Of a stretch of 64,000 bases of DNA, positions 1-36,369 are shown piece by piece. This stretch comes from Escherichia coli. Lineage in GTDB: Bacteria > Pseudomonadota > Gammaproteobacteria > Enterobacterales > Enterobacteriaceae. The notes under the pieces were generated by a model. That model was not told the origin of the DNA. It searched no databases and was given only the letters and a program-made list of their open reading frames with translations. Within the stretch, counting starts at the first letter, position 1; each line of letters starts with the position of its first letter. Position numbers and translations under genes: made by a program. The DNA lies in assembly GCF_001677475.2 (NCBI RefSeq), contig NZ_CP015229.1. One strand, given 5' to 3'.

Positions 1-612
1 GGCATCCCCGCGTACAAACTTCGATGCCCCGTCCATCGCGCCGTAGAAATCGGCCTCGCTGGCAACATCTTTACGCCGGGTTTGCGCCTGCGCCTGGTTG
101 ATCAACCCGGCGTTAAGGTCGGCGTCAATCGCCATCTGCTTACCGGGCATCGCGTCTAAGGTAAAGCGGGCAGAAACCTCGGAAATACGCTCGGCCCCTT
201 TGGTGACGACGATAAAGTTGATGATCATCAGGATGATAAATACCACGAAGCCAACAACGAAGTTGCCGCCGATCACCACCTGACCAAACGACTCAATCAC
301 CTTACCCGCCGCGCCCGCGCCGAGATGTCCATGCAGCAGCACCACGCGCGTAGAGGCGACGTTAAGCGTCAGGCGCATTAAAGTGGTGATCAGCAAAATG
401 GTCGGGAACAGGCTGAATTCCAGCGGACGTTTCGCCGACACGGCCACCAGCAGCACCATCACCGCCAGCACAATGTTGAAGGTGAACAGAATATCCAGCA
501 ACGCAGGCGGCAGCGGCAGAATAACCATCGCCAGAATACACAGGATCACCAGCGGCACGCCGAGATTGCCGCCGCGCAGCAGCGCGAGGAACGATTTAGT
601 TGTTTTCGCCAT
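1..612 (-). CDS. lfhA: Lateral flagellar export apparatus protein FlhA homolog, N-terminal part (3' end lies beyond window start)
   Basis: Minus-strand translation from ATG at 610-612 gives [15 protein letters not shown]... with multiple TM segments typical of FlhA; overlaps lfhB stop as in flhBA operons. Confidence 0.8.
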
Positions 613-1735
613 CCAGTTTAAGCACCTCTTTGGGAATGGAAATATGTCTGTTCAGGGCCGGGCGCGGCTGTGCGCCCTCGCGCCAGTGTTTCATTTGCAG
701 GACGTAGGTCAGAACGTGGGCGATAGCCCGGTAAAGCTGAAACGGAATTTGCTGGTTCACCTGGGTGGTGTAGTAAACCGAGCGCGCCAGTCGCGGGAAC
801 TCGACCACTTCCACCTGATTCTCAGTGGCGACCTGGCGAATATAGAGGGCGATTTCATCGGTGCCTTTCGCCACCACAAACGGCGCGGCGGCGCGCGACT
901 GGTCATACTGCAACGCCACGGCGTAGTGGGTCGGGTTGGTGATCACCACGTTGGCTTTCGGCACCACTTTGCGAATCTGCCCCATCGCCAGTTGCCGTTG
1001 CAGCCGCCGCACGCGTGCCTTCACTTCCGGCTTGCCTTCCTGATTTTTGTACTCTTCTTTCAGCTCTTGTTTGGTCATTTTTAGCCCTTTGGTGAACAGG
1101 GCTTTCGCCAGCGGCACGTCGATAAGTGCAAAGAAAATAAACAGGATTACAAAGTTGCGCATCACGCTGGCGTAGAGCGATAAACCATCGTTAATTGCCA
1201 GTTTGAACGGCAGCGCCTGCAGGCCGAGAAAGGCGGTAAAGTTATTGCGTAGGCTAATCCACAACATCACCAGCACCACCACCGACTTCACCGTCATCTT
1301 CCCCGTTTCCGCCAGATGTTCACTGGAGAACAGCCGCCCAATGCCTTTTAACGGGCTGATTTTGCTGAAATCCGGGAGGATTTTTTTCGGCAGAAACAGC
1401 CAGCCACCAGGCACCAGCGAAGAGAGCAGCGCGGCGGCGGGCATCGGCAGCAACGTAAGAATAAACTTGCCGAGAATTAACAGGTGATGGCGCAGAAACT
1501 GGCCGATAACGTCCGGGTTATTAATCTCCTGCGCGTACTGATGCACGCTGATAAAACTCTCGCGCACAAAATCGGCATACCATGGGAAGCTGCTGGAGAT
1601 CACCACAAACGCCGCAAACAGGCTCGCCGCCAGCCCCATATCCTTCGAGCGCGGCAGTTGCCCCTCTTCACGCGCTTTACGCAGCTTTTGCGCCGAGGGT
1701 TTCTCTGTTTTTTCTTCGCTGCTGCTATCCGCCAT
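596..1735 (-). CDS. lfhB: Lateral flagellar export apparatus protein FlhB homolog
   Basis: 379 aa; NPTHYAVAL autocleavage motif; N-terminal TM domain. Confidence 0.9.
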
Positions 1736-2507
1736 AGTGACCTTTCAGCGCGTCGAGCTGTTGCAGGACAAAATTCGCCAGATGCAGATAGTGATCCGGC
1801 AGGTTGTAGAGCAGGGTGGCAAAGCAGACCAGCCCCGCCAGCATGTTGATGGGAAAGCCGAGCGAAAAGAGGTTCAGCGGCGGTGCAATACGGTTAAGCA
1901 GGCCAAAGCAGCCCTGCACAATCAGCATGATAAAAGTGGTCGGCAGCGCCAGTAGCGATGCGGATGCCAGCACCCAGCTAAAGGCCAGCGCGATGGTGCG
2001 CAGGGTTTGCGGATGCAGCGCGTTGCCGATCGGCCAGTAGGTGAAACCCTTATACAGCACGCTCACCAGCAGCAGATGCCCGTCCATGGCAAAAAACAGC
2101 AGGATCGTGTAGACGTTGATTAACTCCGCCAGCACGGTGGTCGATGCGCCGCTGCTCGGGTCGTTCATCACCGCCATGCTCATCCCCATATTGAACGAGA
2201 GAATTTGCCCGGCCAGTTGCAGCGCCAGAAACAGAAACTGAAACATCAGCCCGAATAACATGCCCCATAAAATTTGCTCCACCGTCAGGATCAGGCTGTT
2301 GAGCGATAACAGGTCGTGGGGAATGGGATGGGGGATCAACGGCGTGATGATAATTGCCAGCGCCAGCGACAAAATAATCCGCACGCGCACGGTCAGGGCG
2401 CTGTTATCCAGCACTGGCACATAGCGCAGAAACGCCATAATGCGCACGAAGGGAAACCACAGCCCCAGCGCCAGATCCATCAGTTGCGTAACGTCGCTTG
2501 TGCGCAT
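1725..2507 (-). CDS. lfiR: Flagellar export apparatus FliR homolog
   Basis: Polytopic membrane protein; start set to ATG 2505-2507 immediately after lfiQ stop (ORF track extends to 2558). Confidence 0.8.
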   Translation of the reverse strand: MRTSDVTQLMDLALGLWFPFVRIMAFLRYVPVLDNSALTVRVRIILSLALAIIITPLIPHPIPHDLLSLNSLILTVEQILWGMLFGLMFQFLFLALQLAGQILSFNMGMSMAVMNDPSSGASTTVLAELINVYTILLFFAMDGHLLLVSVLYKGFTYWPIGNALHPQTLRTIALAFSWVLASASLLALPTTFIMLIVQGCFGLLNRIAPPLNLFSLGFPINMLAGLVCFATLLYNLPDHYLHLANFVLQQLDALKGHYGG

Positions 2508-2508
2508 C

Positions 2509-2781
2509 TTAATGAACCAGCAGGGCGGCCTGGGTAAACAGGTGAATGCACAGGTCATGCAACTGGATAATCATCCATTTGCCGCACACGCCCAGCACCA
2601 CCAGCGTGACAATCAGCCTCGGTAAAAAGCTCAGAGTCTGTTCGTTAATCTGCGTCACCGCCTGGAACACGCTCACCAGCAGGCCGACCAGTAAACTCGG
2701 TACCACCAGCACAGAAACCAGTAAAATCACCACTTTTATGCCGCTGGCGACAATGTCGGCGGCTACGTCTACGGTCAACAT
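2509..2781 (-). CDS. lfiQ: Flagellar export apparatus FliQ homolog
   Basis: 90 aa, two TM helices, position between fliP and fliR homologs. Confidence 0.85.
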   Translation of the reverse strand: MLTVDVAADIVASGIKVVILLVSVLVVPSLLVGLLVSVFQAVTQINEQTLSFLPRLIVTLVVLGVCGKWMIIQLHDLCIHLFTQAALLVH

Positions 2782-34567: not shown

Positions 34568-34579
34568 AGTGAAGAAATT

Positions 34580-35443
34580 ATGCAAAAAATATTAGGTTTA
34601 CTGGTGGTGCTCGGCTGCGTATTTGGCGGTTATTTTGAAGCGGGCGGGCAATTAGTGGCTATCTGGCAACCGGCGGAGATGATCATTATTTTGGGTGCCG
34701 GTTTCGGGGCGATGATTATTGGTAACCCGAAACATGTGCTGAAAGAGATTGCCCATCAAATTAAAGGCGTGATCAGTAAAAAACAGCTTGGGCCGGAATT
34801 TCAGCGCCAGCTATTAATGTGCCTGTATGAGTTGCTCGAAATGGTGCAAAACGGCGGCCTGCGCATGCTGGATCAGCATATCGAGCAGCCGGAGGAGAGC
34901 ACTATTTTCCAGAAATACCCGCTGGTGTTAACCCAGAAACGGCTGGTGACCTTTATTGCCGATAACTTTCGCCTGATGGCGATGGGTAAGATTGACGCTC
35001 ATGAACTGGAAGGCATTCTCGATCAGGAACTGGACACCGCTGAAGAGTCGCTGTTAACGCCGTCGCGCTCGCTGCAACGTACCGCCGAAGCGATGCCGGG
35101 ATTTGGTATTTGTGCAGCAGTGTTGGGGATCATCATCACCATGCAGTCGATTGATGGATCTATCGCCCTGATTGGCCTGAAAGTGGCGGCAGCGCTGGTA
35201 GGGACGTTTTTAGGCGTCTTTATCTGCTACTGCCTGATGGACCCGCTCGCCAACGCCATGGAACAACAGGCGCGGGCGGAGCATTCATTGTTGGAGTGCG
35301 TGCGTACCGTGCTGGTGGCGCAGGCGGGCGGTAAACCGACGCTGCTGGCGGTGGACGCCGGGCGTAAGCTGCTGCATCTGGCGTCCAAACCGACCTTCGC
35401 CAACCTCGACGCGTGGGTGAATGCGATGCTGGAGCAAGAATAA
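34580..35443 (+). CDS. lafT: Lateral flagellar motor stator protein MotA homolog
   Basis: 287 aa MotA/TolQ/ExbB-type 4-TM protein. Confidence 0.85.
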   Translation: MQKILGLLVVLGCVFGGYFEAGGQLVAIWQPAEMIIILGAGFGAMIIGNPKHVLKEIAHQIKGVISKKQLGPEFQRQLLMCLYELLEMVQNGGLRMLDQHIEQPEESTIFQKYPLVLTQKRLVTFIADNFRLMAMGKIDAHELEGILDQELDTAEESLLTPSRSLQRTAEAMPGFGICAAVLGIIITMQSIDGSIALIGLKVAAALVGTFLGVFICYCLMDPLANAMEQQARAEHSLLECVRTVLVAQAGGKPTLLAVDAGRKLLHLASKPTFANLDAWVNAMLEQE

Positions 35444-35445
35444 GC

Positions 35446-36369
35446 ATGAGAAAGACGGGCAACCGCCGCGAGCGTGGGGCAAAAACCACCATCGTCCGGC
35501 GGCAGATCAAAAAGAATCATGCCGGGCATCACGGCGGGGCGTGGAAGGTGGCGTTTGCCGACTTTACTTTGGCAATGATGGCGCTGTTTATGACCCTGTG
35601 GATTGTCAACAGCGTCAGTAAATCCGAGCGTGAAAGTATTATCGCCGCGCTGCACGGGCAGTCGATTTTTAACGGTGGCGGGCTGTCGCCGTTAAATAAA
35701 ATCAGCCCGCCTCATCCGCCGAAACCTGCCACCGTGGCGGTGCCGGAAGAGACGGAGAAGAAAGCGCGCGACGTCAACGAGAAAACGGCGCTACTGAAGA
35801 AGAAATCTGCCACCGAGCTTGGAGAGCTGGCAACCAGTATCAACACCATTGCCCGTGATGCGCATATGGAAGCGAATCTGGAGATGGAGATTGTCCCGCA
35901 GGGATTACGCGTGCTGATTAAAGACGACCAGAACCGCAATATGTTTGAACGCGGCAGCGCGAAGATTATGCCGTTCTTTAAAACGCTGCTGGTGGAGTTA
36001 GCGCCAGTGTTCGACTCGCTCGATAACAAAATTATTATTACCGGGCATACTGATGCGATGGCCTACAAAAGCAATATCTACAACAACTGGAACCTTTCGG
36101 GCGATCGCGTGCTTTCGGCCCGTCGGGTGCTGGAAGAGGCCGGAATGCCGGAAGATAAAGTGATGCAGGTGAGCGCGATGGCGGACCAGATGTTGCTGGA
36201 TGCCAAAAATCCGCAAAGCGCGGGCAACCGGCGCATTGAGATTATGGTGCTGACTAAAAGCGCGTCCGATACGCTGTATCAATACTTTGGTCAGCATGGG
36301 GATAAAGTGGTGCAGCCGCTGGTGCAAAAGCTGGATAAGCAGCAGGCGCTTTCGCAGCGAACGCGTTAA
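35446..36369 (+). CDS. lafU: Lateral flagellar motor stator protein MotB homolog (OmpA-like C-term)
   Basis: N-terminal TM, OmpA-like peptidoglycan-binding motif NRRIEI; start set to ATG 35446 after lafT stop. Confidence 0.85.
   Translation: MRKTGNRRERGAKTTIVRRQIKKNHAGHHGGAWKVAFADFTLAMMALFMTLWIVNSVSKSERESIIAALHGQSIFNGGGLSPLNKISPPHPPKPATVAVPEETEKKARDVNEKTALLKKKSATELGELATSINTIARDAHMEANLEMEIVPQGLRVLIKDDQNRNMFERGSAKIMPFFKTLLVELAPVFDSLDNKIIITGHTDAMAYKSNIYNNWNLSGDRVLSARRVLEEAGMPEDKVMQVSAMADQMLLDAKNPQSAGNRRIEIMVLTKSASDTLYQYFGQHGDKVVQPLVQKLDKQQALSQRTR

Follow-up and report, generated by a model that had tools for sequence, protein, structure and literature searches.

The Laf systems of Vibrio parahaemolyticus and Aeromonas hydrophila are proven drivers of swarming, and in the hierarchy described for V. 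parahaemolyticus and Aeromonas, LafK together with sigma-54 activates the middle genes and LafS, a sigma-28 factor, directs transcription of lafA (summarized in PMC4481668). The locus described here, the Flag-2 (secondary, lateral-type) flagellar locus at positions 1-36369 of a 64,000-nucleotide stretch of Escherichia coli DNA (contig NZ_CP015229.1, assembly GCF_001677475.2; hereafter the window), comprises the same gene families in the same laf/lfg/lfi layout and likewise encodes LafK, LafS, and LafTU. It differs from those systems in that LafK lacks a receiver domain, lafW and lafZ are additional, and motY and maf were not seen, and, unlike them, it is known from its genes only. The lateral-type cluster of Plesiomonas shigelloides is the sole enterobacterial one with demonstrated swarming; it is devoid of lafK and its flagellin carries legionaminic acid, whereas lafK is present here along with TagD-like, GT2-domain, and LafV modification genes (PMC4481668). 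The primary peritrichous system of E. coli, Flag-1, shares homologous structural and export parts but is controlled by an FlhDC/sigma-70 class II hierarchy, is spread over three chromosomal regions, and has a CheY-responsive FliM and a full-length FlgJ. The two systems are distant paralogues, with ~30-40% identity for the rod and hook proteins.

The Flag-2 locus of enteroaggregative E. coli 042 was reportedly described by Ren et al. in 2005, and this copy (NC_017626.1, 284682-323159) served as the reference for our comparisons. It is thought to have been inactivated by a frameshift in lfgC. The window shares with 042 the site and the order and orientation of 42 genes, and most of the proteins are 96-100% identical; the most diverged are those of lfiH (89.8%), lfgN (88.0%), lafV (86.1%), and lafD (77.7%). 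The conserved Flag-2 complement has been defined as 39 genes, arranged in three clusters (14 + 14 + 9) plus lafW and lafZ, with two variable regions, VR1 between lfiJ and lfgN and VR2 between lafW and lafZ (De Maayer et al., PMC6993521). The content of VR1 is the same in 042, which differs from the window in its frameshifted lfgC, a RelE/helix-turn-helix (HTH) pair in VR2, and the absence of a bacterial interspersed mosaic element (BIME) between lfgD and lfgE. Strains EC958, PCN033, and FREC5 share with the window an intact lfgC, a full gene complement, and sigma-54 sites 5' of lfgB and lafB.

The identification of the locus as Flag-2, made from gene content and order, is secure. The initial annotation had proposed a full second flagellar system over this interval, and this was borne out: 42 genes were found, all collinear with 042, comprising the 39 conserved genes in their published order (lfhA as codons 1-204 only, at the window edge) and three flagellin-modification genes. 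In tblastn searches each 042 Flag-2 protein gave one full-length, collinear match, from 612 to 36366, and the DNA from lfhA to lafU aligned end to end at 92-95% identity. Genes are densely packed in five transcription blocks in the open reading frame map and cover 92.8% of positions 1-36369, at a GC content of 55-60% that falls in the right-hand flank. The three marker genes with no Flag-1 orthologue, lafK, lafW, and lafZ (PMC6993521), are all full length relative to 042 (97.6%, 96.0%, and 96.1%; percentages given for genes are protein identities to E. coli 042, and bits are NCBIfam/TIGR model scores, compared with the curated cut-off). The lateral flagellin is likewise full length (residues 1-304) and matches the LafA model NF033376 (lat_flg_LafA_1) at 667.3 bits against a cut-off of 440. 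Altogether, 21 components score above their curated cut-offs (FliP, FliR, FliE, FliF, FliH, FliI, FliJ, FlgM, FlgA, FlgB, FlgC, FlgE, FlgF, FlgG, FlgH, FlgI, FlgK, FlgL, FliS, LafA, and LafU), while seven score below them with the right family still best, five by modest margins (FlhB, FliN, FliQ, FliG, and FlgD) and two by wide ones (FliD and the rod-binding-only FlgJ).

By its neighbours, the locus lies at the canonical Escherichia chromosomal site between yafL and dinB. On the right, dinB begins 71 nucleotides (nt) past lafU and is followed by yafNOP; on the left, a near-identical contig carries an NlpC/P60 (yafL) gene and a RelB/YafQ (dinJ-yafQ) pair. The statement that K-12 retains only the end genes also held: MG1655 keeps lfhA up to ~223 and lafU from ~35603, lacks the ~35.4 kb between them, and has its junction at a 6-nt near repeat, GT(T/G)GAT, which reads GTTGAT in lfhA and GTGGAT in lafU.

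Open reading frames under purifying selection

Each of the 41 genes contained completely in the window begins with a start codon, ends with a stop codon, and is free of stops in between, and the motifs GAFTGA in LafK and NPTH in LfhB are retained. Gene lengths equal those of the FREC5 locus, which is fully annotated in RefSeq without a pseudogene flag, save for two in-frame differences, in lfgM (+3 nt) and lfgK (-9 nt). The 2-bp (GC) insertion after nt 45 that shifts the frame of lfgC in 042 is absent from the window and from FREC5. The absence of frameshifts and early stops reported by the initial annotation thus stands for the complete genes, lfiI and lfgE included, both of which align to 042 at full length and are open. 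It does not extend to lfhA, of which only codons 1-204 of 697 are visible (612 to 1, minus strand); codons 205-697 lie beyond the window start, so the full intactness of this gene cannot be read from the window alone. The near-identical contig (ABBDKH010000003.1, GCA_019139975.1) differs from window positions 1-11735 by one base and encodes an identical LfhB; its lfhA, an FHIPEP gene, spans all 697 codons and differs from that of 042 at 6 amino acids.

The ratio of nonsynonymous to synonymous substitution rates (dN/dS) relative to 042 is 0.086 for the Flag-2 genes and 0.079 for the flanking housekeeping genes, values that are indistinguishable. In a three-way comparison of the window, 042, and FREC5, 801 synonymous and 247 nonsynonymous changes fell on the window branch (dN/dS ~0.094), and the LafA protein is identical in all three, with 59 synonymous and 0 nonsynonymous changes over the three branches. 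The Flag-2 gene set is therefore under purifying selection as strong as that on neighbouring housekeeping genes. Such low ratios argue for use of the system somewhere in nature, and conditional use is likely from these substitution patterns.

This comparison was possible because the window carries a third allele, about 5-6% from both of the others: it is 94.5% identical to FREC5 over coding sites, and the figure for 042 against FREC5 is 95.6%. The third allele is what allowed a clean demonstration of purifying selection, the invariant LafA included. Divergence of this order is normal for Flag-2, as the EC958 and 042 loci are ~94% identical (PMC4637896). The closest match among 5,426 complete E. 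coli genomes is ~94% over the cluster and 98.9% over pepD-crl. A non-coli Escherichia was considered in view of the ~94% value, but given the 98.9% identity of the housekeeping flank and the E. coli label on identical database proteins, the source is taken to be an E. coli lineage unrepresented in that set. GenBank already holds the exact proteins under E. coli, consecutively from ANO87416 to ANO87441, and they also occur in 44 collection blocks. The cluster and its proteins are thus already known and the copy is ordinary. At least 80% of window positions 1-25000 is present in 1,030 of the 5,426 genomes (19%), in agreement with published figures of 24/100 strains (PMC6993521) and "around 20%" (PMC4578781). 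With many intact-locus strains known (EC958, PCN033, FREC5, and roughly a thousand complete genomes), the window copy adds little in this respect.

Divergence is unevenly distributed along the locus. Three blocks, lfiH (9120-9830), lafV-lfgN (14737-16222), and lafC-lafD (31590-32298), show substitutions in several-fold excess on the branch leading to the window, with lfiH alone carrying 39 synonymous and 30 nonsynonymous changes there, and variants of LafV and LfgN at least 90% identical to those of the window occur in "unclassified Escherichia" (cryptic-clade) and Pseudocitrobacter faecalis. Taken together, these patterns suggest that the locus is a mosaic that has received DNA by recombination, in line with a report that Flag-2 is a recombination-prone region (PMC4637896). 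Synonymous divergence from 042 is ~0.15-0.35 over 1-40764 (Flag-2 through dinB-yafNOP-rtcB-prfH) and just 0.02-0.09 over 40829-48550 (pepD-gpt-frsA-crl-proB), so the highly diverged segment reaches past Flag-2 to ~40.8 kb.

Predicted regulatory cascade and probable conditional expression

The promoter layout of the locus is compatible at the sequence level with a functional lateral cascade. Upstream of lfgB, a perfect consensus sigma-54 promoter, TGGCACGGCGATTGCT, lies on the plus strand at 17361-17376, 37 nt before the ATG, and its GG and TTGC are kept in 042 and FREC5. A second sigma-54 promoter, TGGCACGCCTTTTGCC (30204-30219, plus strand), precedes the lafB...lafS-lafTU operon; in an alignment of seven genera its TGGCA-G...TTGC is invariant and its flanks are variable. 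Sites 5' of lfgB and lafB have also been reported in PCN033 (PMC4578781). The lafA-lafB regions compared included those of Citrobacter rodentium, Kluyvera, Scandinavium, Leminorella, and Siccibacter, and phylogenetic footprinting across the seven genera left a single conserved block upstream of lafA, a sigma-28-like promoter at 29057-29083 on the plus strand (TTAAGTTT-N11-GTCGTTTT, the latter half taking the form GyCGyTTT in the alignment). Its invariant positions are 29057-60, 29062-63, 29066, 29076, 29078-79, and 29082-83; the -35 half matches the FliA-type consensus at 7/8 positions, and the -10 half keeps the G-CG core. No second good lafA box was found in the window, where the three other matches have 2-3 mismatches each and lie inside coding sequence. 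A candidate sigma-54 promoter for lafV, CGGCACGGTAATTGCA, is present on the minus strand at 15701-15716 with 1 mismatch to TGGCAC-N5-TTGCW.

Two other candidates were set aside. The textbook FliA consensus (TAAAG-N14-GCCGATAA, with at most 3 mismatches) gave 40 matches, mostly intragenic and none convincing 5' of lafA. A weak sigma-54 site for lafA, CGGTTTTAAGTTTGCT at ~29052, was rejected on the grounds that its -12 GC is unconserved in the other genera, whereas TTAAGTTT and GyCG are conserved.

Together with LafK, LafS, LfgM, and LafTU, this layout fits the V. parahaemolyticus hierarchy, from which the dependencies given here are inferred. By analogy with V. parahaemolyticus and Aeromonas, LafK would activate the sigma-54 promoters of the rod-hook-ring operon and of lafBCDEF-lafS-lafTU, and LfgM would restrain LafS until its own export by the hook-basal body, whereupon LafS would transcribe lafA. 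With LfiHIJ driving export, LafA would then pass through the LfhAB/LfiPQR gate and polymerize under the LafB cap, and the LafTU stator would turn the motor. The flagellin is probably modified by the TagD-like, GT2, and LafV enzymes. LafK aligns to NtrC/FlbD-type models only from model position ~120-200 onward and is without a receiver domain, which makes control at the level of LafK synthesis probable. The likeliest environmental input is the ToxR-like LafZ: residues 24-110 match winged-helix models of the CadC/OmpR family, one hydrophobic segment follows at ~143-162, and the gene is oriented divergently from lafA across a 485-nt AT-rich spacer (GC 0.458 for 28001-30000). The N-terminus of LfiM (MLKYSKTPGIFK...) is without the CheY-P-binding motif of FliM proteins, which is LSQxEIDALL, and this suggests a motor outside chemotactic control. 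Expression would probably be conditional and off in standard laboratory growth. We are confident that this is a Flag-2 locus with open genes, sigma-54 sites, and a LafK-LafS-lafA cascade predicted by homology, which is probably expressed conditionally.

Several observations weigh against this reading. EC958 (ST131) has an intact lfgC and locus, but no LafA was detected in it by western blot and its fliC mutant was non-motile at 28 and 37 C (PMC4637896), and Leminorella grimontii, which has flag-2 only, has been described as non-motile (PMC6993521). At the top of the cascade, neither lafK nor the lfiM operon has a recognizable promoter. In the lafA box, only 4/8 positions of the -10 half agree with the FliA consensus, and the AT-rich lafZ-lafA region could be silenced. 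Two inverted repetitive extragenic palindromic (REP) elements form the BIME in the lfgD-lfgE spacer (18894-19020, unstranded; REP consensus at 18992, predicted hairpin of -55.7 kcal/mol), which could reduce the expression of the nine genes after it and might affect polarity or mRNA stability in the lfgB-L operon. Finally, the evidence that lfhA codons 205-697 are intact, which comes from the contig of a relative and not from the window, is strong but indirect. A search of the lfiM-lafK, lfgM-lfgA, and lfgJ-lfgK intergenic regions for sigma-54 and sigma-28 motifs gave nothing usable.

It is quite possible, though we hold it well short of probable, that in this strain the cluster, though intact at the gene level, is phenotypically silent and never expressed at a level sufficient for filament assembly, either for want of the activating signal or an upstream regulator or through silencing of the locus, in which case the strain would in practice be unable to build lateral flagella. 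The EC958 result, the missing lafK and lfiM promoters, and the AT-rich region upstream of lafA all favour this, as does the description of Flag-2 function in Escherichia as unresolved in reviews and recent papers (PMC6993521 among them). However, a window-branch dN/dS of ~0.09 and a LafA without a single nonsynonymous change would be difficult to explain if the system were never used, and few conditions were tried in EC958, the sole E. coli strain tested directly for Flag-2 (PMC4637896). Moreover, Yersinia enterocolitica expresses its Flag-2 genes at 20 C, and swarming in Plesiomonas is driven by the related system there. What Escherichia does with a second flagellar system has been a question since 2005, and a complete, constrained locus is a reasonable test subject, for which reporter constructs could be designed with the help of the lafA and lafB promoter footprints obtained across genera.

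The same evidence bears on the proposal in the initial annotation that an intact cluster suggests an ability of the strain to build lateral flagella. Intact loci are the norm, as all 39 conserved genes are present in 77.9% of 592 enterobacterial loci and 22% are without at least one gene (PMC6993521), and EC958 shows that an intact locus may come without LafA or Flag-2 motility, so the proposal is unsupported as it was put. No one has yet demonstrated flagella built from Flag-2 in E. coli, and such a capability here is plausible but unproven. Gene-level intactness in E. coli has so far come without a matching phenotype, which calls for caution. More tentatively still, we consider a working conditional lateral system, with potentially new features such as a CheY-blind motor, a receiver-less LafK acting via LafZ, and flagellin bearing methyl-lysine and teichoic-acid-like glycerol-phosphate, to be conceivable but rather doubtful; if it is correct, the invariance of LafA would reflect a strong functional or host-recognition constraint.

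That the apparatus is kept mainly for protein export or adhesion and not for motility is improbable. De Maayer et al. propose that cargo encoded in VR1 or VR2 is secreted in some taxa (PMC6993521), but no effector-like cargo is present here, as VR1 holds modification enzymes only and VR2 a REP element only. In addition, the stator genes lafT and lafU, the flagellin gene lafA, and the cap gene lafB are among the most constrained of the locus (dN/dS relative to 042 of 0.009, 0.054, 0, and 0.029, respectively), which suggests that selection acts on a rotating filament and not just on export. Least likely of all, and close to refuted, is a decaying remnant that is intact in looks only: the loss of the cluster from many Escherichia by a single deletion, the lfgC frameshift in 042, and the loci lacking a gene all lend it something, but the open frames, the coding density, a dN/dS far from 1, and the conserved GAFTGA and NPTH motifs speak against it.

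Gene inventory along the locus

The flagellar genes listed by the initial annotation were all recovered; it made no mention of the three modification genes (11600-15666) or the REP/BIME elements. At the left end, seven genes on the minus strand encode the export gate and part of the C-ring. The 5' part of lfhA (1-612), for the FlhA-type export gate, is 100% identical to 042 over residues 1-204 and aligns to TIGR01398 positions 3-191/678. It is followed by lfhB (596-1735), for the FlhB export switch of 379 amino acids (aa), with an NPTH autocleavage motif at residue 267 (97.1%; 344.6 bits, cut-off 349.25); lfiR (1725-2507; FliR, 260 aa, 99.2%; TIGR01400, 173.3 above 168.6); lfiQ (2509-2781; FliQ, 90 aa, 100%; TIGR01402, 79.6, cut-off 88.9); and lfiP (2784-3536; FliP, 250 aa, 98.4%; TIGR01103, 242.7 above 217.45). 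The C-ring genes are lfiN (3533-3904; FliN, 123 aa, 97.6%; TIGR02480, 83.5, cut-off 84.05) and lfiM (3897-4748), whose FliM-like product of 283 aa is 98.6% identical to that of 042 and has no NCBIfam match at 1e-12.

The next block is on the plus strand and opens with lafK (5135-6121), whose product of 328 aa is a sigma-54 activator with an AAA+ domain, an HTH domain, and GAFTGA at residue 81. It continues with lfiE (6136-6477; FliE, 98.2%; TIGR00205, 72.4 above 30), lfiF for the MS ring (6482-8128; FliF, 548 aa, 98.7%; TIGR00206, 224.4 above 129.75), and lfiG (8106-9116; FliG, 336 aa, 99.4%; TIGR00207, 202, cut-off 226.7). The divergent lfiH (9120-9830; FliH, 236 aa) scores 307.7 with NF009925, above 192. 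It is followed by the export ATPase gene lfiI (9823-11160; FliI, 445 aa, 98.2%; NF005535, 773.1 above 715) and lfiJ (11163-11597; FliJ, 100%; TIGR02473, 58.3 above 50.45).

Beyond VR1, three genes are encoded on the minus strand: lfgN (15794-16222), from a divergent block, for a FlgN chaperone of 142 aa whose identical database protein is named FlgN; lfgM (16235-16513), for the FlgM anti-sigma-28 factor of 92 aa (96.7%; TIGR03824, 50.9 above 40.75); and lfgA (16594-17331; FlgA, 93.5%; TIGR03170, 122.7 above 54.65). The rod, hook, and ring genes run on the plus strand from the rod gene lfgB (17413-17748; 98.2%; TIGR01396, 105.6 above 59.05) and the rod gene lfgC (17751-18182), a 143-codon open frame (TIGR01395, 132 above 102.1). 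The hook cap gene lfgD (18182-18895; 237 aa, 98.3% with a 3-aa indel) has the length of its FREC5 counterpart and scores 219.1 with NF007198, cut-off 267. After it come the hook gene lfgE (19039-20241; 400 aa, 98.5%; NF005286, 536.7 above 467), the rod gene lfgF (20241-20978; 98.8%; NF009280, 315.9 above 210), the distal rod gene lfgG (21157-21942; 99.6%; TIGR02488, 349.6 above 252.75), and the L- and P-ring genes lfgH (22149-22814; 97.7%; NF009072, 428.6 above 323) and lfgI (22829-23929; 98.1%; NF003676, 449.6 above 300). The product of lfgJ (23929-24228; 99 aa) comprises only the rod-binding part of FlgJ, without the muramidase domain, aligning to positions 20-90/294 of the FlgJ model, and is annotated as a rod-binding protein in 042. 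The series continues with two hook-associated protein (HAP) genes, lfgK (24437-25804; HAP1, 455 aa, 98.5% with a 3-aa in-frame deletion; TIGR02492, 341.4 above 170.75) and lfgL (25819-26748; HAP3, 98.1%; TIGR02550, 198.1 above 127.2), and with the Flag-2-specific lafW (26765-27742; 325 aa), which belongs to no NCBIfam family.

On the minus strand, lafZ (27801-28643) encodes a ToxR/CadC-type membrane-anchored regulator of 280 aa. The remaining genes are all on the plus strand, beginning with lafA (29129-30043) for the lateral flagellin of 304 aa. The filament cap gene lafB (30251-31567; 98.4%) has FliD as its best family (152.5, cut-off 387), and lafC (31590-31982) encodes a FliS chaperone (96.9%; TIGR00208, 78.9 above 53.75). 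The most divergent gene, lafD (31987-32298), encodes a FliT-like protein of 103 aa whose identical database protein is named FliT, and lafE (32295-33356; 94.1%) specifies FliK hook-length control, with a YscP/FliK C-terminal domain at 35.4 bits. The product of lafF (33364-33831) is 99.4% identical to that of the 042 gene annotated as FliL family and has no NCBIfam match at 1e-12, and the sigma-28 family gene lafS (33851-34567) is 97.1% identical to the 042 gene annotated as a FliA/WhiG sigma factor. The locus ends with the stator genes lafT (34580-35443; 99.7% to 042 MotA) and lafU (35446-36369; MotB, 97.7%; NF005273 LafU, 572.1 above 383), the latter containing FADFTLAMM with the plug/transmembrane aspartate.

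Variable regions, repeats, and neighbouring genes

VR1 consists of three genes (11600-15666) that form a non-flagellar modification module, of the commonest published type, and has been found to contain TagD in 235 strains, its FliB-like methylase being named LafV (PMC6993521). The TagD-like glycerol-3-phosphate cytidylyltransferase (11600-11995, plus strand; 131 aa) scores below the cut-off of TIGR01518 (115.1, cut-off 165.4) and above that of the general cytidylyltransferase domain model only (cyt_tran_rel, 62.8 above 27.7), so the substrate of this enzyme is uncertain. The glycosyltransferase (12114-14558, minus strand; 814 aa, 92.6%) has an N-terminal GT2 domain at residues 20-157 (PF00535, E=1.1e-17), and residues 603-728 weakly resemble a TagF-like glycerophosphotransferase (PF04464, E=0.014). 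LafV, a FliB-like flagellin lysine-N-methylase (14737-15666, minus strand; 309 aa), falls below the FliB cut-off (NF038110, 48.6, cut-off 85) and matched no Pfam domain; an identical database protein is named lysine-N-methylase. It appears to be a distant relative of FliB with a putative methylase activity, and the content of VR1 as a whole suggests flagellin modification.

VR2 is void of genes and holds only a REP element (27743-27800), whereas that of 042 holds the RelE/HTH toxin-antitoxin pair. The segments that did not align with 042 are REP/BIME elements, GC-rich palindromic repeats, and this 042-specific insertion, and the window segments absent from 042 were accordingly dismissed as insertions of interest. 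REP/BIME elements occur within or between the Flag-2 operons at 4931-5007, 12024-12060, 18894-19020, 20991-21121, 27750-27785, and 30054-30090, and two of these match Rfam naRNA4. The lfgG-lfgH (21950-22090) and lfgJ-lfgK (24231-24374) spacers each hold a copy of a long GC-rich palindromic repeat, CCCTCACCCCGGCCCTCTC...GAGAGGGTTAGGGTGAGGGG, with predicted hairpins of -95 and -88 kcal/mol; the lfgJ-lfgK copy is unlike that of 042.

To the right of the locus, the toxin gene yafO (37843-38241) is an open frame of 132 codons, and the 042 copy is annotated with an internal stop. Directly after yafP lie genes for an rtcB-family RNA ligase and release factor H (prfH) at 39010-40772; at 90.7% and 93.9% nucleotide identity to 042, these are among the most diverged flank genes, and a 129-nt segment upstream of them (38877-39005) is absent from 042. 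Farther along, a defence islet (48665-55133) adjoins tRNA-Thr(CGT) (48665-48740), and the same islet is present in 042. It starts with a P4-like remnant marked by the Rfam C4 antisense RNA (49627-49715) and isrK (49737-49814). The islet encodes a 1069-aa protein with reverse transcriptase and nitrilase domains on the minus strand (49918-53127), which matches the DRT family RT_UG5-nitrilase at 1031.7 bits and is annotated in 042 as hypothetical only, and an AbiEi/AbiEii pair at 53423-54226 and 54213-55133.

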